DNA from: Polyangiaceae bacterium
GTDB lineage: Bacteria > Myxococcota_A > Polyangia > Polyangiales > Polyangiaceae
Assembly (NCBI GenBank): GCA_050287085.1
Contig: JBNKBE010000005.1
Location: forward strand, 228,740 to 292,739
Length of the DNA stretch: 64,000 nt
Reading direction: 5' to 3'
Numbering within the stretch: position 1 is the stretch's first letter; each line of letters starts with the position of its first letter. The position numbers and the translations under genes are program-made. Positions 10,237 to 41,526 of the stretch are shown here, piece after piece. A model generated the notes under the pieces. That model was not told where the DNA came from. It saw only the letters and a list, made by a program, of their open reading frames with translations, and did no database searches.

Positions 10237-11025
10237 ATGACCACGACCTCATCCCCCTCTGTACAAGCGCACCGCATCCCCGGACTCGACGCCCGCCGTC
10301 CGAGCTGGTCGTATCGAAGACTGGGAGCGCTGCTGCTGGCAACCAGTTTTGCAGCTGCCTGCAACGCCGATGGGCTCGACCACGCCGAGATAGAGCAGTG
10401 GGAAACCGAACAGGCGGAGGCGGAAGCAACCGAACGCGCAGAGTTTGGACAGAGTCAGGATGCGCTCTCCTTCATCGGATTTCTCGGTTGTACTTGGGGA
10501 CCTTTTGGCTCACCCCAGGCGTTCACCTTTACCAACAACTTGCAAGGTTGGTACTCGAGTGGCGTTTGGGACGAGGCAACCGGCAGCCAGAATCCCATCT
10601 CTCAATCGCTGGTGGCGTGGAGCGGCCAGGCGGCGCTGCTGCTCGGGGTCAGCGCCAGCAACGCCGCAGCGGGCCTGGAGGAGCCCTATATCGAGCTACG
10701 TGGCCCAACCAAAGGCTACAACTGGAGCAATTGGGAGGGCCTGACGCAGCTCACCTACTCAGCACGCACCAACGTGTCGGGCCTCCGCCTGGTACCCTAC
10801 CTCACCACCAAGACCTGCCTCGGCACCAAGGCGACAGGCCCTATGCAAGGCGTCTGTACGCCTGCCGGCAACAACAACACCATTACGTGCACCCACACGC
10901 TACCGGCCCATGTCCAAGCCGACTCGCTGGTCCGCATCAGCCTCCGCGCCTACTTGCCCGAGTACATGAGTGTGAGTGATGGCTTCCTCTTCATCGACAA
11001 CATCAAGGGCAGCGCCTCGCGCTAG
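10237..11025 (+). CDS. Hypothetical lipoprotein
   Basis: Lipobox SFAAAC, EQ-rich linker ending QSQDAL, beta-rich mature domain. Confidence 0.7.
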   Translation: MTTTSSPSVQAHRIPGLDARRPSWSYRRLGALLLATSFAAACNADGLDHAEIEQWETEQAEAEATERAEFGQSQDALSFIGFLGCTWGPFGSPQAFTFTNNLQGWYSSGVWDEATGSQNPISQSLVAWSGQAALLLGVSASNAAAGLEEPYIELRGPTKGYNWSNWEGLTQLTYSARTNVSGLRLVPYLTTKTCLGTKATGPMQGVCTPAGNNNTITCTHTLPAHVQADSLVRISLRAYLPEYMSVSDGFLFIDNIKGSASR

Positions 11026-11067
11026 ACTCGCGAGTGCCCAACCGGGCCGGCCAACGGCACCCGGCCC

Positions 11068-11103
11068 GCTGCGAGGGGCCCCGCGCAGCGGGCCCCTCGC
11101 AGC
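11068..11103. terminator. GC-rich hairpin between convergent genes (possible terminator)
   Basis: Perfect 14-bp stem GCTGCGAGGGGCCC / GGGCCCCTCGCAGC with 8-nt loop; no U-tract. Confidence 0.4.
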
Positions 11104-11122
11104 CCACCCGCCGGCATGTCCT

Positions 11123-12619
11123 CTAACCCGCTGAAATCTCTGTCCCGGCCCCCGAAAATTCGCCCAATACCACTCTTGCACCGGCCTCCCGAGACGGATA
11201 TACGTCCACCCTCCACGCGCGAGTGGCGGAATTGGCAGACGCACCGGATTTAGGTTCCGGCGTAGAGATACGTGGAGGTTCGAGTCCTCTCTCGCGCACA
11301 ACGCTGATACCAATCAGCTTTTTGGGAACTAGCAGGCCGCGGCCGGTGACCACCCTCACCGGTTCTGGCCCACCCTTTGGCCCACCCCGCACGGCTTGAC
11401 AGAACTCGGGAAGTGCGTGGTGAAGCTCGCGAACTTCACCGAGGTCGAGCTCAGCAAGGGAGCTCGCGTCTTGCCGGTAACGCAAGAGCTCGGTCGAGCG
11501 GTGCCCGGTGCGCTGGCGAACCCAGTCCTCGGTGCGCCCCGATGCCAGCGCGCGCGTCACGAAGCTGCGGCGGAAGCTGTGCGTGCCAAAGGCCCCCCGC
11601 ACCGCGGTGCGCTCGAAGAGCTCGGGGCGGCGCACCCCCGCCTGCTTGAGATGGCGTCGCACCAACTTGGCCAGGTTATCGCGGTCGACGGGCATTCCGG
11701 GTTTTTCCGAGAATACCGCAGCATCGGGCCTGGCGGCGTCGCCGAAGCGCTCCTTCCACGCGCGTAGTGCCTCCGCTACGCCCGGGCTCATCTTCCACCA
11801 CCGAGGCGAATCCGTCTTGTTCTCGTCGAGCCTGAGCGTGCCGTGCTGCAGGTCCACGCAGTCCCAGGTAAGCGACAGCGCCTCCTCGCGCCGCATGCCC
11901 TCGCGATGCAGAAAGCCGTATAGCAGTCGATAGCCGAGCGGGATGGCCTGGCACGCCAGCAGCTTGGCGTCCTCCGCGGGTAAAAGGATCGCGTAGGCCT
12001 TGCGCGAGTTGGGTCGTGGGAGCCAACCACGCGGGATCGGGCTCGCTGCGATGTGCTTCAAAGGATAGACCGCCAGCGCCAGCACGCGGTGGACGAGCTG
12101 GGCGTACTGCCGGCGCGAGGAGGGAGTGAGCTTGGGCGGCAGCGACGCCATCAGCCGCTCCGCGTGCTCGAGAGTGAACTCGCACACCGGGACCTCGCCC
12201 ACAACGGGGTAGACGGACTTCTCGAGCCGCAGCCGATCGTCCTCGGCCGTGCGCTTCTTCCGCACGTGGTCAGGGAAGCGTTGGTGAAGCTGCCCACTGG
12301 TCCAGGCCTCACCGATCTCGCGAAAGGCCACCGCCGACGCTTTCAGGTTTACACTATTCACGCCGCACAGCGTTTCACCAAACCGCACAACGTCTTCGAA
12401 GTCGGAGCGCTTGCTGACGCCCGCAGCTTTTCTCAGCAGGATGGGCGCCTCTTCAAACTTACCCGAGCGCACCAACGCGGCCGCGAGACCCTGCAGGATG
12501 GCGTCGCGGCGTGCCGCTTCCACCTCGTCCGTGACGGCGATGACGAAGCGTTGACGTTGGCCCTTGCCGCAACGCAGGCGCGTGCGAAAGCCGTACGGGG
12601 TGCGTTCTAGCGAACTCAT
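11123..12619 (-). CDS. int: Tyrosine recombinase/integrase; frame reads through attL antisense to tRNA-Leu
   Basis: Catalytic set R (EGMRREEA), K (DENKT), HxxR (HSFRR), H (TGHRS), Y (LLRYR); codons 441-458 are the att core. Confidence 0.95.
   Translation of the reverse strand: MSSLERTPYGFRTRLRCGKGQRQRFVIAVTDEVEAARRDAILQGLAAALVRSGKFEEAPILLRKAAGVSKRSDFEDVVRFGETLCGVNSVNLKASAVAFREIGEAWTSGQLHQRFPDHVRKKRTAEDDRLRLEKSVYPVVGEVPVCEFTLEHAERLMASLPPKLTPSSRRQYAQLVHRVLALAVYPLKHIAASPIPRGWLPRPNSRKAYAILLPAEDAKLLACQAIPLGYRLLYGFLHREGMRREEALSLTWDCVDLQHGTLRLDENKTDSPRWWKMSPGVAEALRAWKERFGDAARPDAAVFSEKPGMPVDRDNLAKLVRRHLKQAGVRRPELFERTAVRGAFGTHSFRRSFVTRALASGRTEDWVRQRTGHRSTELLRYRQDASSLAELDLGEVRELHHALPEFCQAVRGGPKGGPEPVRVVTGRGLLVPKKLIGISVVRERGLEPPRISTPEPKSGASANSATRAWRVDVYPSREAGARVVLGEFSGAGTEISAG
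11176..11204 (+). promoter_or_regulatory. Sigma70-type promoter of tRNA-Leu
   Basis: TTGCAC-N17-TATACG ending 12 bp upstream of the tRNA. Confidence 0.6.
11217..11298 (+). tRNA. tRNA-Leu (anticodon TAG), CCA not encoded
   Basis: Acceptor stem GCGCGAG/CTCGCGC, D arm GGCGGAATTGGCAGACGC, anticodon arm CCGGA-TTTAGGT-TCCGG, long variable arm, T arm GGAGG-TTCGAGT-CCTCT. Confidence 0.97.
11246..11299 (+). repeat. attL core (54 bp, 3' part of tRNA-Leu)
   Basis: GGATTTAGGTTCCGGCGTAGAGATACGTGGAGGTTCGAGTCCTCTCTCGCGCAC, identical to 28754-28807. Confidence 0.95.
11366..11387 (+). promoter_or_regulatory. Putative integrase arm-type sites (tandem TGGCCCACCC)
   Basis: TGGCCCACCC-TT-TGGCCCACCC; the same decamer recurs at 28647-28656 inside the other end. 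Confidence 0.6.
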
Positions 12620-12802
12620 CTGTCCTCTCTCTTCGAGCCATCCGGCGCTGTCCGTTTGACGAGATTGAACGCTGGCTGCGGCAGAAGCCCCTCGCGCCGG
12701 AATACAGCGAAGAAGTCCTGACTCTACATCTCGTGCACTTCGAGGTGCGTCACGCCCGCCCAGCGGAGCATGCCTGTCAGTCGGGCAACGTCTGCGTGAT
12801 TG

Positions 12803-12940
12803 TCAGGCGCGAGCACGACGTGAACCCGGGGCTGCCTTGCGGAACGCTTGTCGAAGCCAGTCCGACATGGATAGGCCATTCGCCTCGGTGACGGCCGTCA
12901 ACATCTCGTACTCCTCCTCGGTCATACGCACGTTGACCAT
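12803..12940 (-). CDS. Small ribbon-helix-helix (CopG/MobC-like) protein, 45 aa, not in the ORF track
   Basis: MVNVRMTEEEYEMLTAVTEANGLSMSDWLRQAFRKAAPGSRRARA: beta strand, then two helices with the GxSxSxWxR turn. Confidence 0.7.
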   Translation of the reverse strand: MVNVRMTEEEYEMLTAVTEANGLSMSDWLRQAFRKAAPGSRRARA

Positions 12941-13513
12941 GCGTGCCCGCTTTTCGGTGCTCCATCATCTCAAGTGGCTTAATGTATAGCCAGCGGCTAT
13001 CGCCTCAGCAAGGGCAACTGTCCGCTTCGGCCTGCCGTTGCGTTTCCTGTGGGGCGCGCTCCACGGCGACTGGAACCCGCGGCTTCCTGCAACGGACTTG
13101 AGACTCTGATCGCGGTGGCCGTTGGCGGCTGCGGCACATCGATTAAGGACCGGGGGTGGGCTCCTCGCTGGGCTAGGCTCGCGTGCTGAACCATGCAGGA
13201 GCGGCCGCGCGGCGGTACACTCTTCGCTGTGAAGACGACCTTTCTTCCGTCGTCTCGTCATCCCTTCCCGCGGGGCGTCTAGTCTCCCGAGGCAAGAAGG
13301 GTCGCAGCACGGCGGACGTCCACGCAAGACAGGCCCTCGGCAATCGCCACCATGACGAGTGCGACGGGGTGGGCTTCGGCACGTCGCTCACGCGCGGCCT
13401 CCACGCAGGTTTTCTTTTTTTGGGCGACAAGCGCCGCCAAAGACACGCCCGATGGGCGCTGTGACTGTCACCCTGTCGCTACCTTGCGTGGCGTGGCGGC
13501 GCAGGCGACAAGG

Positions 13514-14321
13514 TCACGCCGTCCCTGTCCGTGCGGCATCGTTGAGGCGCCGCCCCCACTCCATCGGGTCGTCGCCAGCGCGCGTGCCTCGCTGGACGGG
13601 GGGCGCGGCTTGAGCGGGGTGCTCCCAGTCCTTAGGGCGGAGCCAGTTCCGGAACGCGGCACTCCAGTCCAAGCGCGCCTCCTTCCACTCGTGGTCTCTG
13701 AACCTGGCAAGCTCGAGCTCAAGGTTGCGACCGTAGCGCCTGGCCAGCTCTCGGTGACCGTCGTTCGGCTGCCAGGAATCGGGAACTCGCCTGGACCGTT
13801 TGCCGCACACTTCCTTGCGCGAATTCCAATGGGTTCCTTTATTGGTTACTTCCCTAGGTTCCTTAGGGGACCCCTCCTGCACTAGTGTTGGTACCCCTGG
13901 TGCACTGATGACGACACCCGTGGCGCACTGGTACGGTTCGGGTACCGGTACCCTCCGTGCACTCGTACTGGTGCGCGTCGGGTACTGGTGCAGGTCGGGC
14001 ACTGGTGGCCCCCGCGTCGGGAAGCGTCATCAGCCCCGTAAGGCCGTAGTGATTTGTTGGCTTGGCGCCCCGCACGACAGCGCCCCCCACGGTTGGCCTG
14101 CGGGTGCTCACCGCAATTGCGCCCTGCGCCAAGAGGCCGCGGATGGCGGCAAGCACGGCATGCCGGGACAGACCCGTCTTGCGCTGCAGTTCGCTCAAGG
14201 ACGGCCAGGGTTCGGGGCTCGACGGGCTCCAGTTGTCCAAAAGGGCGAGTGCCAAGAGTTTCTCCAAGGGCTTGAGCTTCGAATTGAAAACGCGCCGCTG
14301 CCCGCCAAGGAGATCCATCAT
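13514..14321 (-). pseudogene. Phage-type replication initiator (N-terminal HTH, C-terminal DnaT-like domain), split by a frameshift
   Basis: 14321-13863 frame: WPSLSELQRKTGLSRHAVLAAIRGL. 14002-13514 frame: PKEPREVTNKG linker and PDSWQP...LARFRDHEW...DWSAAFRNWLR. Confidence 0.75.
13879..14006. repeat. Iteron-like array inside the initiator gene (putative origin)
   Basis: GYACTGGT-like octamers at 13879, 13902, 13925, 13942, 13965, 13982, 13999 (spacings of 17 or 23 bp). Confidence 0.65.
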
Positions 14322-15034
14322 CCCCAGTCCTCGACGATAGTTCCGTCGTGCACGAGCCGGCGATACAGTGCCGCGCCGTAGCGGGCGGCGAATTGCTCGG
14401 GCGTGAGTCCCGTCGTCACGATCATCGGGCGCCGCTGCCGGTAGCGATGATCGATGACCTCCATTAGCGCATCGCTTGAGGGTTCGAATCCGAGCTCGTC
14501 TAGAACGAGCACGGTGGTGGTCTGGGCGTGGACGATGAGCGGGGGCTCGGCGCCGAGAGGGGCGTTGCGACGGGCATACGCGAGCTCGAACCCCGAGACC
14601 CAGGCGAAGCCCCACAGCTCGGCACGCTCGCGCCTGCGGAGCGCGGCCACCGCAGCCTCGTACTGGGCGTGCAGGCGTGCGACAACAGCGGCGGACTTGC
14701 CCACGCCGGTGGGCCCCGAAACGAACAGAGAGCGGTGTCGCGGATGCCACCGGCGAACGCCCTCGACGACCTTGGGCGAGGCGAGGCGGCAGAACTCACC
14801 GTTGCCAAAGCGTGCGTAGCTCCACCTCGGCGTGGCCAGTCGCACGCCCTGGGGGCCGTCGAGGCTCCCTTCGAATTGCTTGGTCGCCGCAGCCACTGCC
14901 CGATCGACCGGGTTCTTGCTCCGACGGTGGAGGCAGTACAGGTGCGCTGGGGCACCCGTGACGTCGCGATATTGCTGGCCCACGACCGGCTGGTCGCAGA
15001 ACGGACAAACGATCGACTGGGCGACGCCCATCAC
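14318..15034 (-). CDS. DnaC/IstB-like AAA+ ATPase (helicase loader)
   Basis: GPTGVGKS, VLVLDELGFE, IDHRYRQRRPMIVTTGL; N-terminal CxxC...HxxC; ATGA-coupled to neighbours. Confidence 0.88.
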   Translation of the reverse strand: MMGVAQSIVCPFCDQPVVGQQYRDVTGAPAHLYCLHRRSKNPVDRAVAAATKQFEGSLDGPQGVRLATPRWSYARFGNGEFCRLASPKVVEGVRRWHPRHRSLFVSGPTGVGKSAAVVARLHAQYEAAVAALRRRERAELWGFAWVSGFELAYARRNAPLGAEPPLIVHAQTTTVLVLDELGFEPSSDALMEVIDHRYRQRRPMIVTTGLTPEQFAARYGAALYRRLVHDGTIVEDWG

Positions 15035-15255
15035 CGCGAACCTCTGTAGAGCTTGACCTGGCGTCGGCTCCCCATCTCGAGGCGGACCCGGTCCACTACG
15101 AGGGCGGCTAGGTGGCTGTCGCCACGTGCCCGAGGCGGGCGCAGGGTTGACGGGACCAGACGCTTAAGGCGGTTGCGCGACTCGTGGGTCATGCAGAGGC
15201 TGGTCGCCTCCGCGAGCGCAACTGTGATGCCACCGTAGCCACGCGCCACAAGCAT
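15031..15255 (-). CDS. Small hypothetical protein
   Basis: Start and stop overlap both neighbours, indicating translational coupling. Confidence 0.55.
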   Translation of the reverse strand: MLVARGYGGITVALAEATSLCMTHESRNRLKRLVPSTLRPPRARGDSHLAALVVDRVRLEMGSRRQVKLYRGSR

Positions 15256-15569
15256 CAGCGCCCCCCCACGAGTCGCAGTTCCGCTCGCAGTTCGTCGACG
15301 GGGCTCGGCTGCGCTTTGGGGCCGGCTGGTGTACGCAGCGCCTGCGCTACGGCCTCGTTCGACAACAGGAAGCGACGTCCGACCTGTGCCGCTCCAGGCT
15401 TTCCTAACCCGATGAGTGTGCGCGCCGTCGCGATGTGACGACGCCGACCCAACGGGCTCGCAGCCTGGTCTAACCAGCCCGAGCCGGTGCCAGTGAGCAG
15501 ACGCGACGCGACGCGGTCGGCAATAGCGTCCGCGAGCACTTCGAACGCCGCGGCGAGTGACTCCTTCAC
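15255..15569 (-). CDS. Putative excisionase/RDF-like DNA-binding protein
   Basis: Basic 104-aa protein with WLDQ...GAAQVGRRFLLSNEAV winged-helix-like pattern, in the early operon. Confidence 0.55.
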   Translation of the reverse strand: MKESLAAAFEVLADAIADRVASRLLTGTGSGWLDQAASPLGRRRHIATARTLIGLGKPGAAQVGRRFLLSNEAVAQALRTPAGPKAQPSPVDELRAELRLVGGR

Positions 15570-15742
15570 GCGCGCGCTCCGATGAGCCCGCGCCGGTAAA
15601 GCGCGGCCCTTACCCGCTCGCCGGCGCGGCCTCGAATGGGGGGCCTTTCCCCGCGCGAGGCGGCGATGGCGTTTCGGACAGTGCGGGGGTCAACAACTGC
15701 TTCAGCAGCGACCAGTAGGATCGTCGTGTCGTCGATACTCAT
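15566..15742 (-). CDS. Small Cro-like HTH protein, 58 aa, not in the ORF track
   Basis: MSIDDTTILLVAAEAVVDPRTVRNAIAASRGERPPIRGRAGERVRAALYRRGLIGARA; stop overlaps the GTG of the next gene. Confidence 0.65.
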   Translation of the reverse strand: MSIDDTTILLVAAEAVVDPRTVRNAIAASRGERPPIRGRAGERVRAALYRRGLIGARA

Positions 15743-15816
15743 GGGGCTACATCATGGGCACCAGGCGCAGCGGAAGTCACCAGCGTAGAGGGATGACGTT
15801 GCGAGTCGTAGCAACC

Positions 15817-16677
15817 TCAAGACGGTAACGATTCCGAACCCAGAAGAAAGCTGTTGGACGCTTCCGACTTCAGGAAGTTATCGGCTTCCGTCTTCGAAAC
15901 TCCAACGCAGCGGATGGTGGCGCGAGCGTACGCTCGGAAGTCGGTCGCCTTCTTCCCCTTCGAGATCCGGACCCATGAAGCGAGCAGTCCCGTCCACTCT
16001 GCTCTAAAGTACCGCTCCCACTCGAGCCAGTCGGGCCCCTGGCGCAACTCCCACAGCCGAAGCCACATGGGGTGGTCTGGGACCTCCGGGTCGTCGCGGT
16101 CACGCAGCTCTGAGACCGCCGGGTCGGCGGGGTCAAGCAGCTCTGGGCTGTTCGCGAACTGCAGCACGAAGCGAGTGAAGCGGAGGTCCGCGCACTCATT
16201 CTTCTCGTAGACGTGTTGACTCAGGCCAGAGGCAGCTCGGAGCACGCCCATGACCGACCGCAGGAAATCTTCTGACGGTACGTCCGGCGACTCGCGCATC
16301 GCATTGAGACCTCTCCGCACCGCCCCCCTCAACATCGCAAGGTCGGAGCTGCGGTAGAACGACTGGGGATAGCCAAGCAGTCGACGTGCTACTGTCGCCA
16401 GCTCGAGCCGCCCGCCCTCGATCTTCTCTCGGACTGGAGGCCAACGCGGATCGGGCACTACCTCCTTATAGTAATCAAGGTTCTGCACCTGGTAGGACGC
16501 AAACCGAAGGGCTCTGACCACCGTTGCCTCATCAGGCCGCCCAGACTCCTTGAATCCCTCTTCTAGGGCCAGTAGGGCCGCGATCATTTGCTGACTGCCG
16601 CGAGGAACCCCGTTCCTTTCTGGTACTAGCTTACGCGGGCGCTTCTTCCCTGTTATCTTCTTCTCTGTCACTTGCAC
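15817..16677 (-). CDS. Hypothetical protein
   Basis: 286-aa ORF with ordinary globular composition; no family recognised; start uncertain. Confidence 0.6.
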   Translation of the reverse strand: MQVTEKKITGKKRPRKLVPERNGVPRGSQQMIAALLALEEGFKESGRPDEATVVRALRFASYQVQNLDYYKEVVPDPRWPPVREKIEGGRLELATVARRLLGYPQSFYRSSDLAMLRGAVRRGLNAMRESPDVPSEDFLRSVMGVLRAASGLSQHVYEKNECADLRFTRFVLQFANSPELLDPADPAVSELRDRDDPEVPDHPMWLRLWELRQGPDWLEWERYFRAEWTGLLASWVRISKGKKATDFRAYARATIRCVGVSKTEADNFLKSEASNSFLLGSESLPS

Positions 16678-17170
16678 TGACCCGGTTCCCCCCGAGGGGT
16701 TGGCGCGCCGCCGGGGGGGTCTTTCTGTTTTGGGAGTCTACTCGATTTCGCCAGCGCGCAGGCGCAAGCAACGCGGGCCGCCAACAGCATTCGGTTGAGC
16801 TGAAGAAGGTTCTCGCTCGGCGTGCTGTCTCGTCTTGGAACGCGAGCGCGTGTCCGACGAGCTAGCTACGAGGGGAGCACGACGCAAGGCTGCTGCCGGA
16901 GCGGACCACATTGTACCAGCTCGCCAATGCCATCACCGGTGCCGCCCACGCAGCGGAGCTGGCACGGCGGCTCGAGATCCAGATACGCGCCCGGGGGCTG
17001 CGACAGCGGGAGCTCAGAGCCGAGTAAGACACCCTCCCACCCGGCGGATGCTCACCGTGCACCGGCTCGCCGTCGGCTCCTCCGGACTTGGGGCAACGGC
17101 AGCCGGCCCAGGCTCCGCACATTCAATAGCCACAGTTTTCCCAGCTTGCCGGTCGTGATTTTCGAAGGGT

Positions 17171-17220
17171 AGTCTTCCCCAACCTTGCCGATCTCTTCCC
17201 AAGTTTGCCCAACTGCTCCC
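17171..17220 (+). promoter_or_regulatory. Five phased 10-bp repeats abutting the ATG of the HTH regulator
   Basis: AGTCTTCCCC AACCTTGCCG ATCTCTTCCC AAGTTTGCCC AACTGCTCCC, then ATG. Confidence 0.55.
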
Positions 17221-17573
17221 ATGCCTGAAGAGTTCCTGACGCTGCCCCAAGTGGCCGAACTGCTACAGGTCGCCACGAAGACGCCATGATGGCGACGGGC
17301 GAGCTTTCGGGCTTCAAGGTGGGAGGCCAGTGGCGCTTCAAGCGCGCCGACCTGGACCAGTGTGTCGAGGAGCAGAAGCAGGGCGCTTCAGCAAGACTGG
17401 GCGCTACGGCCCACAAGCAGAGCGCTCCGGCCAAGCACAGCACCCAGTCCAAGAAGACGCGCCCCAAGGCGCTGACGAAAAAAAGCGACCCGCAGAAGAA
17501 GGATGCCAAGAAGGCGACCGCGGGAGCCAAGAAGTCCAGCACCGAGTCGGCGGCTAGCAAGACCCGCCGCTAG
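17221..17573 (+). pseudogene. Excisionase-family (HTH_17, MAD1/BldC-like) regulator with Lys-rich tail, frameshifted near 17283
   Basis: MPEEFLTLPQVAELLQVATKT, frame change, then MMATGELSGFKVGGQWRFKRADLDQ. Confidence 0.75.
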
Positions 17574-17603
17574 TAGCTTTGCCACAACTTTTCTCTGCAC
17601 CAC

Positions 17604-19920
<2,317 letters not shown>

Positions 19921-19924
<4 letters not shown>

Positions 19925-21276
19925 CGGGGGCCTACCAGCGGCGCGACTCGCTCCGCGAATCGGGGGCACAGTGGCTCGGCGCGGTCCCGGACTTCTGGCC
20001 CGTTGTACGGCTAAAGACTCGGTTTGAGATCCGCAAAGACATCGCCGGAACACTGGGATTCGATGTGCTCTCGGTGACCCAGCGAGGGCTCAAGAAGAAG
20101 GACCTGACCTCGGGCGAAGGGCAACTCTCAATGGACTACTCCAAGTACCAGCTAGTTCGTCCCGACGACTTCGTGATGAACCACATGGACTTGTTGACCG
20201 GCTACATCGATGTTGCCGCTCAGAGGGGAGTCACTAGTCCAGACTATCGGGTCTTCGTCCCCCGACACGGAATCGAACTCGCTAGGCGCCACTACCTGTA
20301 CATCTTCCAGATGTGCTACACGTATCGAGTCTTCTATCCTTTGGGGCAGGGAAGCGCGCAGTTGGGTCGCTGGCGTCTGCCTCGAAAGGCTTTCGAGGAG
20401 TTCCTCCTCCCTGTTCCGCCCCTCGACGAACAAACCCAGATCGCCAAGTTTCTCGACTACGAGACGGCGAAGATATCCCAGCTCATCGACAGGCAGCAGC
20501 AGCTCATCGCGTTGCTCAAGGAGAAGCGCCAGGCCGTCATCAGCCACGCGGTCACCAAGGGCCTCAACCCCAACGCCCCCATGAAAGACTCCGGCGTCGA
20601 ATGGCTCGGCGAAGTGCCGGCGCATTGGGAGGTGTGTCGGGTCAAGCAGGTGACCGGCTTCATCACCTCAGGCCCGCGAGGCTGGTCCGACCTCATCACC
20701 GACGACGGGACAGACGTCTTCCTCCAGAGTGGCGATCTCAACGACAAGCTTGGCCTCGAGCTCGATTCAGCCAAGCGAATTCGCCCCCCTCAAAACGCGG
20801 AGGGGGTGCGCACCCGGATGCAGGAAGGCGACGTGGTCGTCTGCATCACTGGCGCCAACACGGGCCGCGCAGCGGTAGCCAATGACCTTCGTTGCACAGT
20901 CTTCGTGAACCAGCACCTCAGCCTCGTCAGGCCGCTGAAGAACAGGGTGCACCCAACCTATCTGGCAACACTTCTAGCCTCGTCCGCCGTCAAGGCGTAC
21001 TTCGCAGTCAAGCAGTACGGCCTGAAGGAGGGGCTGAGCCTTACTAACGTGGCCGAATCGCCCTCGTGCGTCCCACCAATCGAAGAACAACTGGCAATCA
21101 TCCAACATGTTCGTCGTCTTGAGGTGCAGTTGGACCGGCTCGAGGATGCCGCATCCTCGCAGGTCTCCCTCCTCCAAGAACGCCGCACCGCCCTCATCTC
21201 CGCCGCCGTCACCGGTAAGATCGACGTCCGCAACTGGCGCCCCCCTGAACACGAAGCCACCCAGGAGCTCGCATGA
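19921..21276 (+). CDS. hsdS: Type I R-M specificity subunit HsdS (system 1)
   Basis: Two TRDs flanked by [14 protein letters not shown] / [20 protein letters not shown] / [20 protein letters not shown]. Confidence 0.95.
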
Positions 21277-21956
21277 GCCGGGACGCAGACGCTGAGTATG
21301 TCCGGGATACGCTCGGCGACCTGTATGGTGTGACGCTGAGACGAATTCCGGAGTCCAAAAAGGAAGAGGGGAAGTCTGCTGACCTGGAGCTCCTGGTCAG
21401 CGACCAGCGCACTGCTGTATTGGATGTATTGGAGGTGAAGACCATCGAAGAGACGCCCCGCACTGAGGAGAACGGTTTCCGCAAGGATGGCATCTGGACA
21501 GTGCGTACCGACAACTCCCCCAAACGCGTAGGAACGCTGATTCACAAGGCGTGGAAGCAGCTATCCACCTACCCCGAAGAGCTGCCCAGAGTGCTGGTGC
21601 TCGTAAACGATGAGGGTGGCGCTGACGTTCAGGACTTGGAGGAGGCGTTCCAAGGCTTTCTCGACTACGGCGGCGACGAGGGGGCAACCATGCGCAACGT
21701 GGCGTCACGGAAGATCGCCGCCGGGCGCATCCGCGATGAGAAGTGGCGCATCGACCTCTACATCTGGATAGACCGCCACTACGGCACTGGAACCACCGTG
21801 CAGGTCTTCCCCACGGGCGGCACCCCAAAGCTTGAGCGGCGCACGTTGGGCCCCTACTTTCGCTGCACTAGCGAACGAGGCAACGAACTCATGCGCGCTC
21901 ACTTTCACGCGGAAGGGGCGACGACACCAACCGAGGTCCGAGGAGTGGGGCTGTGA
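21273..21956 (+). CDS. Hypothetical protein with PD-(D/E)XK-like motif
   Basis: RIPES...KSADLEL...VLEVKT; ATGA-coupled to hsdS. Confidence 0.65.
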   Translation: MSRDADAEYVRDTLGDLYGVTLRRIPESKKEEGKSADLELLVSDQRTAVLDVLEVKTIEETPRTEENGFRKDGIWTVRTDNSPKRVGTLIHKAWKQLSTYPEELPRVLVLVNDEGGADVQDLEEAFQGFLDYGGDEGATMRNVASRKIAAGRIRDEKWRIDLYIWIDRHYGTGTTVQVFPTGGTPKLERRTLGPYFRCTSERGNELMRAHFHAEGATTPTEVRGVGL

Positions 21957-21980
21957 CCTTGCAGTTAGGGGGAGCGGGCC

Positions 21981-23390
21981 ATGGCCACTAGCGTTGATGA
22001 CATCAACCGCTGGCTTGCTGCTCCGTCGGAACACGAGCGACTCGAGTTCAAAGAAGCCAAGCAGCAGTACAACAACGAGAAGTTGTTCAAGTACTGCGTC
22101 GCCCTCGCGAACGAAGGCGGCGGGCTTTTCGTGCTGGGCGTCAGCGACGCTAAGCCCCGCAAGGTGGTCGGGACGAACGCGTTCAACAACCCGGTGGAGA
22201 TGGCGGCAAAGGTCTACCGAACACTGAAGTTCCGGGTGGAGATGGAAGAAGTGGAGCATCCGGACGGGCGGGTCCTGATCTTTCATGTGCCATCCAGACC
22301 GCGGGGCGTCGCTCGCGAATATCAGGGGGCCTACTGGATGCGGATTGGGGAAGAGCTCACTCCGATGAGTCCTGAGCAGCTCCGCGGCATCTTCACCGAG
22401 GATGAAGAGCCTTGGTTGGACACCGCTGCGGTTGAGGGGGCAAGCGCACAAGATGTTGTTCAGTTGCTGGACACACAGACCTTCTTCGATCTGCTGGGGC
22501 TTCCCTATCCCACCGAGCGGAGCGGAGTTCTGGCGAAACTCAAGGCAGAACGGTTGATCGACGAGCAATCCGGCGGGTTCGTCATCAGCAAGTTGGCGGC
22601 CGTGCTACTTGCGAAGAATCTCCGCAACTTTGACCGGGTGTACCGCAAGGCGCCTCGGGTGGTGGTCTACAACGGGAACAACAAGTTGGAGACCACGTCG
22701 GATACAACCGGCGGCAAGGGCTACGCCGTCGGCTTTCAGGGATTGGTGGAGCACGTGATGGGGCACCTGCCGCAAAACGAAGTGATCTCGGACGCGCTTC
22801 GCCGGGAGACCAAGCTGCTGCCCGATGTGGTCATCCGTGAGCTCCTAGCCAACGCGCTCATTCACCAGGACTTCACCATCTCTGGCGCCTCGCCCATGGT
22901 GGAGATCTACGCGGACAGGGTCGAGATCTCCAACCCGGGTGAACCCATCGTACCGCTGGAGCGTCTGATCGATGCGTATCGGTCGCGCAACGAGCGACTC
23001 GCCGACTTGATGCGTCGGTTTGGCATCTGTGAAGAGAAAGGCAGCGGCATCGACAGGACTGTCAAAGCGGCGGAAGTTCATCAGCTCCCACCCCCCGACT
23101 TCCAGTTGGGAGTCAAGCGTACCCATGTTGTCGTCTTCGGCCCCAAGCCGTTCAAGCGGATGGAGAGAGGTGAACGTATCCGCGCCTGCTACCAGCACTG
23201 TGCACTGCAGTACGTGCTCAAAGGGCAGATGACCAATCAGACGTTGCGGGAGCGGTTCAAGTTGTCTGACGGCAGCGCGGCCACGGTTTCCCAGATCATC
23301 ACGGCTACCATCGACGCTGGTCTCATCAAGCCCGACCCGGACGCTCCACCCGGGCGGAGGTTCTCCCGATACTTGCCCGCTTGGGCGTGA
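21981..23390 (+). CDS. Schlafen/AlbA_2 + HATPase_c_4 + winged-helix protein
   Basis: EHERLEFKEA, VALANEGGGLFVLGVSD, IRELLANALIHQDF, VEISNPG, SRNERLADLM, EEKGSGI. Confidence 0.88.
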   Translation: MATSVDDINRWLAAPSEHERLEFKEAKQQYNNEKLFKYCVALANEGGGLFVLGVSDAKPRKVVGTNAFNNPVEMAAKVYRTLKFRVEMEEVEHPDGRVLIFHVPSRPRGVAREYQGAYWMRIGEELTPMSPEQLRGIFTEDEEPWLDTAAVEGASAQDVVQLLDTQTFFDLLGLPYPTERSGVLAKLKAERLIDEQSGGFVISKLAAVLLAKNLRNFDRVYRKAPRVVVYNGNNKLETTSDTTGGKGYAVGFQGLVEHVMGHLPQNEVISDALRRETKLLPDVVIRELLANALIHQDFTISGASPMVEIYADRVEISNPGEPIVPLERLIDAYRSRNERLADLMRRFGICEEKGSGIDRTVKAAEVHQLPPPDFQLGVKRTHVVVFGPKPFKRMERGERIRACYQHCALQYVLKGQMTNQTLRERFKLSDGSAATVSQIITATIDAGLIKPDPDAPPGRRFSRYLPAWA

Positions 23391-23654
23391 CTTGCTTTTT
23401 CATACTGGCGCCCGTGAACACCGAAGGAACGCACAACCGTTTGAAATAAAAGAAGATTCTCTTTTTATCGCAAACCGCACTTTGGTGCCCCCCAGGGGCC
23501 CCGCGCCGGCCGAGCCACCTCTCGACCACACCCCCAGCCTTTTTCACCCACTCCTCTCCAGGTCGCCGTAGGCGACACAAATGACCAAAAAGACAGAGCT
23601 TTTTCTTATTTCCGCAAACCGCAGTTACTGAAGTCCACCGCCGAGAGATCACCC

Positions 23655-26600
23655 ATGACCGCTGACGCCAAGGAACGCGCCTTTCAGGACGACATCATCC
23701 GCGAGATGGTCGAGCGCGGCTGGGTGCTCGGCGAGACCGCCAAGTACGACCGGGAGCGGGCGCTCTACACGGAGGACTGCCTGGCCTTCGTCAAGAACAC
23801 GCAGCCCAAGACCTGGGAGAAGTACCAGAAGCTCAACCCGAATGAGCCCGAGAAGGCGTTCATCGCGCGCGTCGCTACCCAGCTGGGCAAGGTAGATCCG
23901 AACGCCACGAGCAAAGAGCTCCGCAAGTACGGCACGCTCGGTGTACTTCGCCATGAGGTGCGCGATAAGTCCGCGTCCTTCAAGCTCTGCCAATTCAAAC
24001 CCGAGCACGGTCTCAACCCGGAAACCCAGGCCATGTACCAGGGCAACATCCTGCGCGTGGTGCCGGAGCTGGTCTACAGCCCGTACGCCAACGACGCGCA
24101 TCTCGCGGAAACGGGCGCCAAAGCAAAAGCTTGGCGCATCGACCTGGTGCTCTTCCTGAACGGCCTTCCCATCGCCACCTTGGAGCTCAAGAGCGAGTTC
24201 AAGCAGGCGGTTCATAGTGCTATTCACCAGTACAAGAAGACGCGCCTGCCGAAAGACATAGGCACGAACAAGCCCGAGCCGCTGCTTTCTTTCAAGCGCG
24301 GCGCCCTCGTACACTTCGCCGTGAGCCAATACGAGGCGTACATGACCACGCGGCTTGCCGGCGATGAGACGCGGTTCCTGCCGTTCAACCGCGGGACGAA
24401 GGACGGCGCCGCCGGGAACGACCAGCCGGGTAACATCCACCGCTACGCCACGGACTACCTGTGGCGCGACGTGCTCGCCCCCGCAAACATCCTCGACATC
24501 ATCGGGCGCTTCATCCACCTGGAGATCAAGGAGAAGGAAGACTGGGACGGTCGCAAGTACAAGACCGAGGCGCTCATCTTCCCTCGCTACCACCAGTGGG
24601 ACCTGGTCAAGCAGCTCATCGACACCACGCGCGCCGAAGGCCCTGGCCACAAGTACCTGGCCCAGCACAGCGCCGGCTCCGGCAAGTCGAACTCCATCGC
24701 CTGGACGGCGCACCAACTCGCCTCGCTCTACGGCAACGCGGGGAGCAAGGTCTTCGACTCCGTCATCGTGGTGACGGACCGCAACGTGCTCGACTCCCAG
24801 CTCCAAGACACCATCTACCAGTTCGAGCACGCTGACGGCGTGGTGGGCCGCATCAACAAGGATGAAGGCCAGGGCAGCAAGAGCGAGAAGCTGGCCAAGG
24901 CGCTGGAGGACAGCACGCCCATTGTCATCGTGACCATCCAGACCTTCCCGCACGTGCTCTCCGCCATCGAGAGCAGCATGACCTTGAAAGAGCGCTGCTA
25001 CGCCATCATCGCGGATGAAGCGCACTCCTCCCAGTCGGGCTCCACCGCCCGCAAGCTGAAGGAAGTGCTGACCACGGAAGCTAGCGAAGAAGAAGACCTC
25101 GCCATCAGCACGGAGGACATGCTCGCCGCCGCGGTGGACTCCCGGCGCGCCTCGAACAACCTGAGCTACTACGCCTTCACCGCGACCCCGAAGTCGAAGA
25201 CGCTCGAGCTGTTCGGGCGCCCGCCGAATCCGGACGAGCCTGTGTCAGCAACGAATAAGCCCCGGCCCTTCCACATCTACAGCATGCGCCAGGCCATCGA
25301 GGAGAAGTACATCCTCGACGTGCTCAAGAACTACACGAGCTATAAGGTGGCGTACCAGCTCGCCCAAAAGGCCGCAGCGGCCGATGAAGAAGTGGACGCC
25401 AAGCGCGCCAAGGTGAAGCTGGGCCAGTGGGTGCGCCTGCACGAGTACAACATCGCGCAGAAGGTGCAGGTCATCGTCGAGCACTTCCGCGACAATGTCG
25501 CCGGGCTGCTCGGCGGGCACGCCAAGGCGATGATCGTCACCGGCTCCCGCAAAGAGGCGGTGCGCTACAAGCTCGGCTTCGACAAGTATGTTGCCAAGAA
25601 GGCGTACACCGGGCTCAACGCCATGGTGGCCTTTTCCGGTGAGGTCGAGTTCACGGAGAAGGACCCTCAGTCGGAGGGACTCTTGGGGGAGAAGTTCACC
25701 GAAACCAGCATGAACCCGGACCTCAAGGGGCGGGACATGCGCAAGGCGTTCGACACCGAGGACTACACGGTCATGATTGTGGCCCAGAAGTTCCAGACCG
25801 GTTTTGACCAGCCCAAGCTCTGCGCGATGTACGTGGACAAGAAGCTCGGGGGCATCGAGTGCGTGCAAACGCTGTCCCGCCTGAACCGCGTCTACCCCGG
25901 CAAGCTGGAGACGGGCACCTTCGTGCTCGACTTCGTCAACGACCCCGAGGAGATCCTGACGGCTTTCCAGGACTACTTCCAAACGGCGGAGCTGACCAAC
26001 GTTTCCGACCCCAACCTGCTCTGGGAGCGGTACGACAAGCTGCGGGACTCCGGCATCTTCCTGTGGTCGGAAGTGACGCTGTTCTCCGACGTCTTCTTCA
26101 CCAAGAGCAAGAGCCAGGCCGCCATCAGCAACGTCTGCAAGCCCGCTGTGGACCGCTGGCAGTGCCGCTACGAGCAGGCCCACAAAGACCACGTCAAAGC
26201 CAAGGACCTGTTTACGCGAGCCATGAAGTCCGGGGACGCGGTGCTCTTCGCCAACGCCGAGGGCGAGATGAAGGAGGCCAAGACCGAGCTCGACGCCCTG
26301 GGCACGCTCAAGGGCGACTTGGTGACCTTCACCCGCCAGTACGAGTTCCTGTCTCAGATCGTCGACTACGACAGTCCGGATCTCGAGAAGCTAAGCCTCT
26401 TCGCCCGCCACCTGGCGCCCCTGCTACGCGAGAAGACGCCCGAGCAGGACCCCATCGACCTCAGCTCCGTGGAGCTCAGCCACTACCGCTTGGCAAAGCT
26501 TCGCCAGCAAGACCTGCTGCTCGTGCAGGACACCACCAGCGGCTTGGACCCGGCGTCCGCCTACGGCACCCGCAAAGCGAGGGACAAGAGGGAAGAGTGG

Positions 26601-26948
26601 CTCTCCCAGATCATCTCCCGGCTAAACGAGCTGTTCGTCACCGACGGGCTCAGTGAAAAAGACCTGGTCAACTACGCCTACCCCCTGCGCGACAAGATCA
26701 GCGAAAACGACGCCGTGATGAAGCAGATTGAGAACAACTCCCCCGCGCAAGCTTTGCTCGGGGACTTCGCCTCCGCCCTGGACGACGCGGTGCTCGAAAG
26801 CAGCGAAGCCCACCAGAACCTGATGAACCAGGTGCTGACGAACAAGGAGACCGCCGCGGGGCTCAGCCGCGTCGTGTTCGACATGCTACTCGCGATGAAG
26901 AAGGGGCTCGGGACGGAGCGGCACTCGTCGGTTCCGCCGTCGAGGTGA
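23655..26948 (+). CDS. hsdR: Type I R-M restriction subunit HsdR (system 1)
   Basis: IDLVLFLNGLPIATLELKS nuclease motif, QHSAGSGKS, DEAH, FTATPK, FQTGFDQP, QTLSRLNR. Confidence 0.96.
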   Translation: MTADAKERAFQDDIIREMVERGWVLGETAKYDRERALYTEDCLAFVKNTQPKTWEKYQKLNPNEPEKAFIARVATQLGKVDPNATSKELRKYGTLGVLRHEVRDKSASFKLCQFKPEHGLNPETQAMYQGNILRVVPELVYSPYANDAHLAETGAKAKAWRIDLVLFLNGLPIATLELKSEFKQAVHSAIHQYKKTRLPKDIGTNKPEPLLSFKRGALVHFAVSQYEAYMTTRLAGDETRFLPFNRGTKDGAAGNDQPGNIHRYATDYLWRDVLAPANILDIIGRFIHLEIKEKEDWDGRKYKTEALIFPRYHQWDLVKQLIDTTRAEGPGHKYLAQHSAGSGKSNSIAWTAHQLASLYGNAGSKVFDSVIVVTDRNVLDSQLQDTIYQFEHADGVVGRINKDEGQGSKSEKLAKALEDSTPIVIVTIQTFPHVLSAIESSMTLKERCYAIIADEAHSSQSGSTARKLKEVLTTEASEEEDLAISTEDMLAAAVDSRRASNNLSYYAFTATPKSKTLELFGRPPNPDEPVSATNKPRPFHIYSMRQAIEEKYILDVLKNYTSYKVAYQLAQKAAAADEEVDAKRAKVKLGQWVRLHEYNIAQKVQVIVEHFRDNVAGLLGGHAKAMIVTGSRKEAVRYKLGFDKYVAKKAYTGLNAMVAFSGEVEFTEKDPQSEGLLGEKFTETSMNPDLKGRDMRKAFDTEDYTVMIVAQKFQTGFDQPKLCAMYVDKKLGGIECVQTLSRLNRVYPGKLETGTFVLDFVNDPEEILTAFQDYFQTAELTNVSDPNLLWERYDKLRDSGIFLWSEVTLFSDVFFTKSKSQAAISNVCKPAVDRWQCRYEQAHKDHVKAKDLFTRAMKSGDAVLFANAEGEMKEAKTELDALGTLKGDLVTFTRQYEFLSQIVDYDSPDLEKLSLFARHLAPLLREKTPEQDPIDLSSVELSHYRLAKLRQQDLLLVQDTTSGLDPASAYGTRKARDKREEWLSQIISRLNELFVTDGLSEKDLVNYAYPLRDKISENDAVMKQIENNSPAQALLGDFASALDDAVLESSEAHQNLMNQVLTNKETAAGLSRVVFDMLLAMKKGLGTERHSSVPPSR

Positions 26949-26951
26949 ACT

Positions 26952-28316
26952 ATGTACTCTAATGTTCTCTCGGACCTCGACGAGCTTGTCCTCCGGTGTC
27001 GGGACGGCAAGGCCCGATCCTACTTGACGGAAGCTGTCACATGCCTAAAGGCCGGTGCCTGCCGAGCCGCTATCGTCGTGACCTGGGTGGCGGTGGTCCA
27101 TGACTTGCTCTCGAAGCTCGAAGAGCTCGCGCTCGGAGGCGACAACAATGCACAACAGAAGGTCGAAGCGTTTCACCGCATCGTTGAGCAGAACGACTTG
27201 CCAGCAAGCCTCGAATTCGAGCGGAATATCCTTGAGGTGGCGCGCGACGAGTTCGAGCTGTTCAGTTCCCTGACTTATGTGGACCTGGCGCGCTTGCGAG
27301 ACGACCGAAACCGATGCGCGCATCCATCAATGCTCAACCCTGACACGGACTACAGGCCCGCGCCGGAACTCGCGCGGACTCATGTCGTGAATGCAGTCAC
27401 GCACCTGCTTGAGCACGGTCCCGCGCAAGGAAAGGCTGCGCTGGAGCGGCTGCTGTCAGAGCTGGATAGAACCCTGTTCCCTGAAACCGTAGAGCAGATG
27501 GCGGCTCACCTTCAACATGGGCCGCTTGGAAGGCCGCGAAAAAGCCTCGTGAGGAACTACACGGTTGTTCTCCTCAAGCGCTACTTCGCAAAGCCACCCG
27601 AGGAACCGGACGATCCGATGGGGAAGCTCCGAGCGCAGAATGAGCGACGGACTGCTGAAATCCGAATACTGCGTGCGCTGCAGGGGGTTCTTATGGTTCA
27701 GCGCGAGCTAACGCTCGCTGCCCTGGGCGAGAAGTTGTCGGAGCTGGTCACCGCTGCTCCAGAGGCGCGACTGAGCTCCGTTGTCGGCTTCTTCGCTTCA
27801 ATTCCAGAGAGTTGGTCGTTGCTTCCGCAGCCACAGGTAGACAGGCTCAACGCCTACGTGCGGTCGATGCCTCCGTCGGTGCTCGACCCAACGCTCCGCT
27901 CCGCCTGGCTGCTGCCAGGGCTCACCAAGAGCGCTTCGCAGCGCCTGAATAGGCTAGACTCCAAGGAGTGGCGCATCGTTGCTGGAACGCCAGGAGCGCC
28001 AGCCGAATGGTTCGATGTGGCGTGGCAGACGTTGCTGTCGGCCACCTCTTGGTCCGAGGCAAACCGCACAAAGGCGTTTGTCGTTCGGCACGCCAACAGG
28101 ATTACTGAGGCGCATGTTACGGCGCTCATCAGCGCCGCCCAAACCAACGAGGAGCTGCAAACCAGCTACGGCGCCAAGGATACGTTTGGCGCAGTGGCCC
28201 AGCCTGGGAACCTGGGGTTCCCACGGCTGCGGGAGTTGCTCAGCACTGCTGGCATCGAGAGTGCCTATTCGGACCAGCACTGGTGGGTAACGAGTGACAA
28301 CGCGGGGCCCTCGTGA
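26952..28316 (+). CDS. Hypothetical protein with N-terminal HEPN-like domain
   Basis: EAVTCLKAGACRAAIVVTW helix and RNRCAH (RxxxxH); starts 3 bp after hsdR with a GAGGTG Shine-Dalgarno. Confidence 0.75.
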   Translation: MYSNVLSDLDELVLRCRDGKARSYLTEAVTCLKAGACRAAIVVTWVAVVHDLLSKLEELALGGDNNAQQKVEAFHRIVEQNDLPASLEFERNILEVARDEFELFSSLTYVDLARLRDDRNRCAHPSMLNPDTDYRPAPELARTHVVNAVTHLLEHGPAQGKAALERLLSELDRTLFPETVEQMAAHLQHGPLGRPRKSLVRNYTVVLLKRYFAKPPEEPDDPMGKLRAQNERRTAEIRILRALQGVLMVQRELTLAALGEKLSELVTAAPEARLSSVVGFFASIPESWSLLPQPQVDRLNAYVRSMPPSVLDPTLRSAWLLPGLTKSASQRLNRLDSKEWRIVAGTPGAPAEWFDVAWQTLLSATSWSEANRTKAFVVRHANRITEAHVTALISAAQTNEELQTSYGAKDTFGAVAQPGNLGFPRLRELLSTAGIESAYSDQHWWVTSDNAGPS

Positions 28317-28405
28317 GCAACGTCGCGGAGCCTCCCCCCACCGCGACGGCTCCTCGTACAACTCCGTGCGGCCGGAGTTTGCCTCCTGCCCCACAGCTCC
28401 AGTGC

Positions 28406-28753
28406 TCAACTACCGCCGACGAGGAAGCGGGCGACTTCAAGCCGGGTCTGCGGTCCCTCTTCGTCCCGGCTGGAGCAGCGCACCAACGCATTCAAGGCAG
28501 TCACGGCGACGTGCGCACCGTCAAGATCACCCGCAGCCACACACCGCACGACCGTCTCCGCCAACGCCCTCACGGCTTCCACCCGTGGCGGCGCGTCCCC
28601 GGCGAACAACATCACCGGCTCGACGCCGTCGCTCAACACAGATTCCTGGCCCACCCCCGCCCTTTCGGATGGGCCTTCCTGCATCTCGGTGCTCGTTCCC
28701 GCACCTTCGTGCACGTGATTCCCGCTACTTGCGCCTTCCTGCACGTTCGTTTG
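28406..28753 (-). other. Detached 3' end of the integrase gene (115 codons, in frame with the att core)
   Basis: ORF 28807-28406 begins with the 18 core codons VRERGLEPPRISTPEPKS found in int and stays open for 115 more codons. Confidence 0.8.
28671..28750. repeat. Eight phased degenerate 10-bp repeats next to attR (putative RDF/Xis sites)
   Basis: GGGCCTTCCT GCATCTCGGT GCTCGTTCCC GCACCTTCGT GCACGTGATT CCCGCTACTT GCGCCTTCCT GCACGTTCGT. Confidence 0.55.
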
Positions 28754-28807
28754 GGATTTAGGTTCCGGCGTAGAGATACGTGGAGGTTCGAGTCCTCTCT
28801 CGCGCAC
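28754..28807 (+). repeat. attR core (54 bp)
   Basis: Identical to 11246-11299; lacks the tRNA 5' acceptor strand and D arm. Confidence 0.95.
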
Positions 28808-28836
28808 GAAAAGCCTGGCCCCGGCCAGGCTTTCTT
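28808..28836 (+). terminator. Intrinsic terminator after the displaced tRNA 3' end
   Basis: AAAGCCTGGC-CCCG-GCCAGGCTTT followed by CTT. Confidence 0.65.
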
Positions 28837-28890
28837 GCGTGAGAGCGTCTCAGGGGAACCGCGCGCCGCTTCGCGCCTTGCTTGTTCGCA

Positions 28891-28909
28891 CGAGTCCTCT
28901 CTCGCGCAC
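28891..28909 (+). repeat. Third, 19-bp copy of the tRNA-Leu 3' end (older att site)
   Basis: CGAGTCCTCTCTCGCGCAC, identical to 11281-11299 and 28789-28807. Confidence 0.85.
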
Positions 28910-29176
28910 CCCTCGGGAATGACTGAGGAAACGGAAACGTCCCCTGCCGAAGGGGACGTTGGTGATTTGGGTGGGGACGATTGCCGGGGCGTTTTGCGCG
29001 CGAGGACGGCGCGGGAGCGGTTGGTCGTGAGGCTTTGTCAGAGCCTGGCGGAGTTGATCAACGCGGGGGACGTGGAGGGAGTCACCGCGGTGCTGTCACT
29101 GCTAAGCTCTCTGCCAGACGCCACCGGTTTGTGGGCGGTTGAGCCACCCGGGTTCGTTGGACGAAAGCATGATTAA
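28910..29176 (+). other. Second orphan integrase-tail-like coding segment
   Basis: RERLVVRLCQSLAELINAGDVEGVTAVLSLLSSL aligns without gaps to RVEAVRALAETVVRCVAAGDLDGAHVAVTALNAL of the first tail. Confidence 0.55.
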
Positions 29177-29786
29177 ACTAGAGTGTTGGGGAAGGACAGA
29201 CGCCGGCGAGTTTACGGCACGCCTACGGCTCGAAAACGGTCGCGCGGCGTGGTCTACCCACGAAGCGAAACTGCTGGAATGTGACACCGACACGTACTTC
29301 GCACTTTCTTCGAAGCTAATCGGACGCAGCCCGAGGGAGTGGTCAACAACCGCACAAGACTTTGGGTTGCCGCTTGCCGTCGAAGCGGTGATTGCCTTGA
29401 CAGGTCGGGAGCAGAACCTGCTACGGGCCTCATTCCTCATCGCGTTGTGGCTCGAACCTTTGCTGCGTCGGAGTCAGGTTGAACTCGCTTCGGAACAGCT
29501 TCATGACCAACTCATCATCGACAATACGGGGCGTCCTGGGATTCAACCATACTTGTATTTCCCTGGTGCGCTCCCTGAGGAGGTCGCTCGCGCGCTCTAC
29601 GATTCGGCGCTATTGGCCAAGCTCTGCCTAACCAGTCTGGAGCAAGCAGTGACGGAGTACTTCAAGCCGCTAGTGACCCCAATCATTCGGACGGACTCAC
29701 TCCCGAGGCCAGCTCGCGAACATTGGGATTTCCTCAAGAACAAGATGCGCGAACGCTCACGCCAGCTTGTAGGAGCTCCCCGATGA
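29169..29786 (+). CDS. Hypothetical protein
   Basis: 205 aa from ATG 29169; stop overlaps the next ATG. Confidence 0.6.
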   Translation: MIKLECWGRTDAGEFTARLRLENGRAAWSTHEAKLLECDTDTYFALSSKLIGRSPREWSTTAQDFGLPLAVEAVIALTGREQNLLRASFLIALWLEPLLRRSQVELASEQLHDQLIIDNTGRPGIQPYLYFPGALPEEVARALYDSALLAKLCLTSLEQAVTEYFKPLVTPIIRTDSLPRPAREHWDFLKNKMRERSRQLVGAPR

Positions 29787-30298: not shown

Positions 30299-30371
30299 CT
30301 CACAGCTATGGGGATGCCTGGTCTCGACAAGCGTTGAACAAGACCGACCGTAGCAGTGCGGCCTCGACTCC

Positions 30372-31691: not shown

Positions 31692-31695
31692 CGCG

Positions 31696-32226: not shown

Positions 32227-32463
32227 ACTACAAACCCCGGGCCTGAGTATACGACTACTGCTCAGATGTACAACCTGTCTTGTGAGCCAGGCCAGGTATT
32301 GGCGACAATCGCCAGTTCGCCGGCGCCGCAATGGACCAAATCTTTGCGCATGCGCCGGGTCGCGGACTTGAGGCCATCGCGATGAAACCTTTGTTGAAAC
32401 GTCGCGCCCGGCTTGGTGTTACCTTTCTCCGTCGGGAGCGTTAGGCAGCGAAGCAGATTGACC

Positions 32464-35946: not shown

Positions 35947-36056
35947 TACCCCCGGCGCCAAGCTCTCGACTTGAAGGCCGCCTAAACCCTAGGTGCCAGC
36001 GGCCGTTCGCTAACACCCACCACGCTGCAGCCCATCAAGCGCGTGCGGCGGCTTTC

Positions 36057-36815: not shown

Positions 36816-36827
36816 CGGGGTTGGCCG

Positions 36828-41413: not shown

Positions 41414-41526
41414 CTCCACACCGTACGCTAGTCCGCACGGGCATGCCCGTTGAGGTGTGCAGGCAGGCTCTGACATGCTGCAAGACAGGGTGACTGTTGG
41501 TGAACGGTGGTGCACTCTATGGCCAA

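Follow-up and report, generated by a model that had tools for sequence, protein, structure and literature searches.

An integrase gene divided by its own attachment site, with a conserved tail parked at the far end of a tRNA-Leu island in a Polyangiaceae bacterium

Introduction

If the gene for an integrase runs across the site at which its own element recombines, then integration and excision will each give the enzyme a different C-terminus, and it can be asked whether the exchange acts as a switch. This question is raised by a 17.5 kb island (11300-28807) in a 64,000-nt stretch of DNA, here called the window, from Polyangiaceae bacterium GCA_050287085.1 (contig JBNKBE010000005.1, 228,740-292,739).

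In the myxophages Mx8 and Mx9 attP also lies within int, and in Mx8, which has a tRNA-Asp target, there is a 112-for-13 residue swap. The passages of one account used here place the Mx8 attP within the 3' part of int, describe integration as giving a new 3' end without inactivating the enzyme, and cite Mx9 integration as a similar principle (PMC6070905); the Mx8 precedent is also present by title, as Tojo and Komano 2003, in the reference list of PMC11610982. An earlier note on the window likened its integrase to these phages and to the archaeal virus SSV1, and proposed a recombination-controlled change of integrase activity or directionality.

The target site and limits of the island

The island lies behind an intact tRNA-Leu(TAG) gene, identified by ARAGORN, and no other Leu(TAG) is found among the tRNAs listed for contigs C1-C83 of the genome scan. 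The features that define the target and the two parts of the integrase are:

11217..11299, + strand: intact tRNA-Leu(TAG), the target gene
11246..11299, + strand: tRNA-side copy of the att core, 54 bp, from the anticodon stem-loop to the tRNA 3' end
28754..28807, + strand: far copy of the att core, a displaced tRNA 3' fragment
11303..11326, + strand: terminator-like hairpin and T run for the tRNA, within integrase linker codons of the opposite strand (consensus match only; shuffles average 1.7)
11123..12619, - strand: tyrosine integrase, integrated form, 498 aa
28406..28753, - strand: detached integrase tail, 115 codons, with a low-complexity linker and a two-helix hairpin (about 28466-28588)

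The two cores form an exact 54-bp repeat (100% identical), and because this repeat starts at the anticodon stem-loop the crossover would fall near int codons 456-458. The intact tRNA and a co-oriented displaced end fragment thus enclose an integrase gene within the 2-200 kb range of tRNA-targeted genomic islands. The island is absent from a genome of the same genus (G177), where the intact tRNA is directly followed by sequence that matches window 28754-29079 at 86% identity over 327 bp; the flank upstream of the tRNA does not align in this comparison, and a further contig, X2, resembles G177 and may not be independent of it.

The integrase gene and its two forms

Membership of the tyrosine recombinases is indicated by Pfam PF00589 (64.8 bits, against a cut-off of 27.1), by phrog_1, by alignment and by the predicted structure of a relative in which integrase and tail are fused, the fold of which matches XerA, Tn1549 Int and lambda Int; a PDB sequence search gave no match. 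The protein consists of an N-terminal domain, core-binding and catalytic domains that extend to about residue 410, a variable linker, the att core at residues 441-458 and 40 host-derived residues. Six residues (R243, K268, H347, R350, H373 and Y381), to which we assign the catalytic roles usual in tyrosine recombinases, do not vary among the 21 integrases aligned (21 of 21); all of them precede residue 441.

The layout described in the earlier note is borne out by these data. The integrase frame (12619-11123, - strand) has no stop before the core and reads antisense through the 54-bp tRNA part to end at 498 aa, the catalytic residues (positions 243-381) are all N-terminal of the junction, and the far core is continued in the same frame by 115 open codons, so that joining the ends at the core gives a single open frame of 573 aa. 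The att core therefore lies in the 3' coding part of int, past the catalytic residues, and is followed by 40 residues in the integrated form and by 115 in the core-joined form. The note had also placed the end of int antisense to the tRNA and its promoter; the tRNA part of this claim stands, and a sigma-70 scan of 11000-13200 found no promoter to sustain the rest.

An open frame beside the far core could be a product of chance in GC-rich DNA. A stop-free frame of 345 nt occurred in 3.2% of 20,000 shuffles and in 20% of 5,000 random stretches of the window, so the open 115-codon frame is weak evidence when taken alone, and conservation in related elements becomes decisive.

Conservation of the tail in related elements

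A tail profile of three rows found tails in 40 of 200 other genomes (E<=0.01), many of them in frame behind tRNA-derived peptides; these matches include chance ones, and five loci were excluded by eye. Of 14 pairings of a tail with an integrase from its own contig, 8 rejoined in frame, 3 were out of frame and 3 shared no core. Since pairing from the tail is biased, the test was repeated starting from the integrase. A second att copy of 18 bp or more was present in the fetched DNA for 18 of the 33 integrase matches examined, and nine of the other 15 had less than 12 kb of upstream sequence. Three of the 18 were dropped: two ORFs stop before the core, and the third has as its second copy a duplicated integrase at a distance of 68 kb (71 codons open, without the motif).

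Each of the 15 far ends kept has 70-123 open codons in frame with the integrase, a length reached by 5 of 30 other frames and by 1 of 15 host-side read-throughs; no p-value is attached to 15 of 15 because the kin are not independent. Twelve of these frames finish in a motif of the VVxL..R type, and 14 contain the helix pair (by eye). The elements span 7.5-19 kb and use Leu, Pro, Phe, Gln, Arg, Ala, Lys and Ser tRNAs, with one target unassigned. The check that the earlier note had called for, namely whether the segment beside the far att site stays open and in frame in related islands, was thus run and came out in favour of its proposal.

Viral records point in the same direction. In IMG/VR, 7 of 11 full-length viral integrases continue for 92-161 residues, three stop early and one is cut by the contig end; of the seven, four have tail scores of 18-57 bits and three read on through half-tRNA peptides. 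One viral record (G340, locus L158) is 15,001 bp long, has direct terminal repeats and is rated 100% complete, and it contains a single open frame that passes from the integrase through half a tRNA-Leu into a tail (56.5 bits) without a stop. The joined integrase gene therefore occurs naturally in relatives.

How well the window tail itself fits this family depends on the profile used. A profile of 14 tails collected from the integrase side, mostly of subtype B, gives it 6.2 bits and third place among 966 window frames, a score short of significance. Once the profile is extended to all 38 tails from outside the window, the score rises to 34.4 bits, and the best unrelated frame reaches 5.2; most of the rows added came from a profile seeded on the window tail, and several of them are validated independently, since they rejoin in frame in the genomes they come from. 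The frequency of open stretches in this DNA and the weak independent score are what a chance origin has in its favour; the conservation of frame, length and hairpin, the 38-tail score and the natural joined gene already contradict it for the integrase family, and we regard it as extremely improbable here.

The window tail is predicted to fold into helices at residues 12-30 and 33-52 (mean pLDDT 80), and in the model of the fused relative the tail follows a low-confidence linker. The window copy is without a clear terminal VVDL..R motif. Tail families are absent from Pfam, NCBIfam and PHROGs, although 6 of 40 tails match LTM (PF25393) weakly (best E 0.00075); a Foldseek search with the tail returned helical hairpins at E>0.4 only, and a tail search of annotated phages gave chance matches only. 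The predicted complex of two tail copies scored 0.16, a value that speaks neither for nor against self-association of the tail. The idea that the tail is a duplicate of the N-terminal helices was rejected (hhalign probability 0.3%).

The integrase family and its distribution

Integrase matches are present in 159 of 201 genomes of the family (158 of the 200 others; E<=0.001, weak ones included), many at 40-50% identity, so that what has been treated in Mx8 as an exception is here the common design of a large clade. The two named full-length matches are Polyangiaceae, and in other families of the phylum the integrase was found in 0 of 139 genomes at the strict cut-off of E<=1e-60; as far as these searches indicate, close homologues are seen in one family only, which the two named matches identify as Polyangiaceae. 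At most of the loci examined the frame continues into a tRNA, in antisense or sense orientation. In some members (L002, L006, L027, G028, G056 and Virus Rctr16k) the protein ends with the catalytic domain or shortly beyond it, ahead of any att site, and the tail is therefore an add-on that is not universally required. Literature searches found no description of this integrase clade or its tail; split integrases are unmentioned in the passages considered from a bioRxiv paper on myxophages (10.64898/2026.09.14.751636) and of PMC13626063, the supplements of which could bear on novelty.

A tree of 33 proteins, with labels set by eye and 14 of 30 inner branches unresolved, shows tail subtype, tRNA target and reading direction scattered among the integrases. 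The window integrase, which has a subtype A tail, belongs to a clade (100/98) whose other members comprise three with B tails, one with an A tail and one that stops early, and two sister integrases (L137 and L143, from G116 and G051; 100/100) read through the 3' half of the same tRNA-Leu(TAG) in opposite directions, which implies a switch of att orientation. Together with a similar shuffling model published for archaeal suicidal integrases, in the portion of that work considered here (PMC8371274), this pattern would be expected if the tail were a genuine domain but the layout served modularity, with an exchangeable core-plus-tail cassette changing the tRNA target and orientation and loss of the tail changing little. 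A tail without effect would not stay open and conserved at 15 of 15 far ends, and the branches left unresolved limit what the scatter can say. As a replacement for a switch such modularity appears improbable; it is compatible with one and may operate in addition.

Two further loci differ from the common arrangement. At L082 (2064-7951; G176:C81) integrase and tail are joined directly, without a tRNA-derived core between them, and a tRNA-Leu lies 5 kb away, with a second tail, in a short frame, behind it. Beside the far att site of L112 (about 13300-13700; G014:C20) there are tandem units of about 180 bp, each with an 18-bp tRNA-Arg end fragment, an arrangement reminiscent of the E. coli tyrT repeats.

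Gene content and state of this copy

Between the integrase gene and the detached tail the island contains:

12803..12940, - strand: small repressor-like gene, probably ribbon-helix-helix, upstream of int (phrog_876, E 1e-4; one relative)
13514..14381, - strand: replication initiator split over two overlapping frames (14381-13863 and 14002-13514), apparently by a frameshift
14318..15034, - strand: DnaC-like helicase loader
15255..15569, - strand: 104-aa gene common to related elements, candidate excisionase
15817..16677, - strand: 286-aa protein, no family match
17286..17573, + strand: small DNA-binding protein of the HTH_17 type, ahead of the restriction-modification (RM) operon
17604..21276, + strand: type I RM genes hsdM (frameshifted near 19620, its end in 19649-19924) and hsdS
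21273..23390, + strand: 227-aa protein without an assigned family, and an AlbA_2/HATPase_c_4 protein
23655..26948, + strand: type I RM gene hsdR, intact
26952..28316, + strand: protein with a PD-T7-3-like N-terminal part (PADLOC E 1.5e-23, residues 9-174)

The two pieces of the replication initiator match the N- and C-terminal parts, respectively, of replication-initiator PHROGs. The candidate excisionase has no match to any family in Pfam, NCBIfam or PHROGs, and tblastn matches to it are found in 6 of 29 fetched regions (42-58% identity). No capsid, tail or terminase genes were detected among the island proteins scanned, so the element resembles PICI-like satellites in combining an integrase, a regulator and a replication module without virion genes of its own; no packaging or helper-interference genes were detected on the island, where several ORFs are without a family. 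The earlier note had called the element non-phage, and the gene content of this copy agrees; the description may not carry over to its kin, as several related elements (by eye) and viral records suggest small phages or satellites.

The frameshifts in rep and hsdM, the latter probably real as the source-run contig is without an indel at hsdM, hint at decay. It is therefore possible, if doubtful, that the design of the family is real and that this copy no longer excises and never makes the 573-aa form. The divergent end of its tail and the decayed older element that adjoins it agree with such a fate, as does the lack of excess depth in the probable source run (island 13.6, flanks 14.3 and 14.6), a measure taken on contigs that cannot display attP or attB junctions because the 54-bp core is one collapsed unitig. 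The identical cores, the intact int and the tail that is still open and in frame argue against such decay.

Comparison with known systems

The comparison with Mx8 drawn in the earlier note proved apt. The Mx8 integrase (IntP in the phage, IntX/IntR in the prophage) is likewise a tyrosine integrase with attP inside the 3' part of int that gains a new C-terminus on integration, and its sequence continues into a tRNA-antisense-like peptide and then about 110 residues, as in the window. Kinship is another matter: Mx8 Int shares 27.7% identity with the window integrase over 191 aa, sits on a long outgroup branch and is not among the best 20 of 114 phage matches, and its tail scores 1.7 bits against the hairpin profile, which is no match, so close homology that includes the tail was not found. 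Unlike Mx8, the window clade uses many tRNAs on both strands and some non-tRNA sites, and the island is without virion genes. The Mx8 design is thus found in an unrelated-looking integrase family with a different tail.

The comparison with SSV1 fails. The archaeal suicidal integrases (SSV1, pTN3, pT26-2) also have att inside int, tRNA targets and a proposed shuffling of halves, but in them integration assigns the catalytic domain to Int(C) and leaves two inactive pieces, according to the sections of PMC8371274 drawn on, whereas in the window every catalytic residue precedes the core and the catalytic domain stays with the gene start. Islander-class tRNA islands and PICI-like satellites share the tRNA with its displaced 3' fragment, the integrase, replication genes, defence cargo and a size like 17.5 kb, but differ from an island in which int crosses att and no packaging gene was found; the part of the Islander account used here already allows integrases that cross attP (PMC4383910). 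The closest annotated phage integrase among the matches listed, that of Virus Rctr16k (KX853514; 46.5% identity), differs in ending at the catalytic domain, about 500 bp before a tRNA-like fragment, with no tail.

A proposed tail-swap mechanism

A split layout, a conserved tail and, in relatives, a naturally joined gene are observed, and it is probable that they belong to one mechanism in which a satellite-like element carries attP in the linker of its integrase. In this proposal attP would lie in the variable linker that separates the catalytic domain from a conserved hairpin of helices at the C-terminus, a position that tolerates any tRNA, strand or frame. Crossover at the anticodon loop would restore the tRNA, leave the catalytically complete part of the protein beside it with a random host-derived end, and park the hairpin at the far end of the island, from which excision would rejoin it to the integrase. 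The tailed form made from the circle may be the efficient integrating enzyme, and the tail-less form may be weaker or biased toward excision with the candidate excisionase, stabilizing the integrated state as in Mx8; more speculatively, the hairpin could be a protein-contact module that aids synapsis. That the tail swap switches integrase activity or direction, as the earlier note suggested, is an interpretation made plausible by analogy with Mx8.

A broader version is offered tentatively, as one that may well not hold: a detachable hairpin could be the directionality switch of the whole clade, and core-plus-tail cassettes, made exchangeable by an att site in a sequence-free linker, could pass between elements and reshuffle target tRNA, orientation and switch, with orphan tails as a reservoir. 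The scatter of tail subtype, target and orientation on the tree suggests that such cassettes are exchanged.

Because the tail is a definable domain that can be deleted or swapped, how att-splitting controls direction becomes directly testable. A class of small hypothetical ORFs found next to tRNA fragments would also be accounted for by the model, and hosts that at present depend on Mx8 integration could draw on the many integrase/tRNA pairs of the clade.

An orphan tail and the region behind the island

A second tail of the same family, which the earlier note did not record, is found just outside the island together with a third copy of the tRNA end:

28891..29176, + strand: 19-bp tRNA-end copy (28891-28909), then an in-frame orphan tail, tRNA-sense

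This orphan tail derives from an older element. No second integrase to go with it was found in genome G000 with the window integrase as query (E<=0.01).

Persistence of orphan tails in G000 and G177 is one reason to ask if, while the element is integrated, a parked tail might be translated alone and serve as a small regulator or directionality factor. The ESM Atlas neighbours of the tail are hypothetical proteins of 98-116 aa, mostly from Myxococcota (scores 0.81-0.83, a lead only), and one of the L082 tails has its own short frame that starts at Met. Yet no conserved start codon precedes the hairpin (by eye), and the frames are open back to the att core, as expected if tails are made as fusions to the integrase; independent translation is accordingly judged very unlikely, and the tail-swap mechanism is preferred.

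Within 28808-29176 a hairpin comes first, then an imperfect copy of the tRNA 3' end in inverted orientation, the 19-bp direct copy and the orphan tail, and this block is also found behind the intact tRNA in G177. A near-identical tail of the orphan type belongs to a complete element in G072:C13. In the window, 29139-44400 is a second, older defence region in which no integrase was detected. Its genes include an IrrE-like peptidase and a second type I RM system, within which lies a PDC-M03 (HipA-like) gene pair; at about 43077-44400 this pair and the end of hsdR recur as a decayed duplicate. Further along, 47893-55788 encodes a 2631-aa protein with many repeats that are Ig-like by eye.
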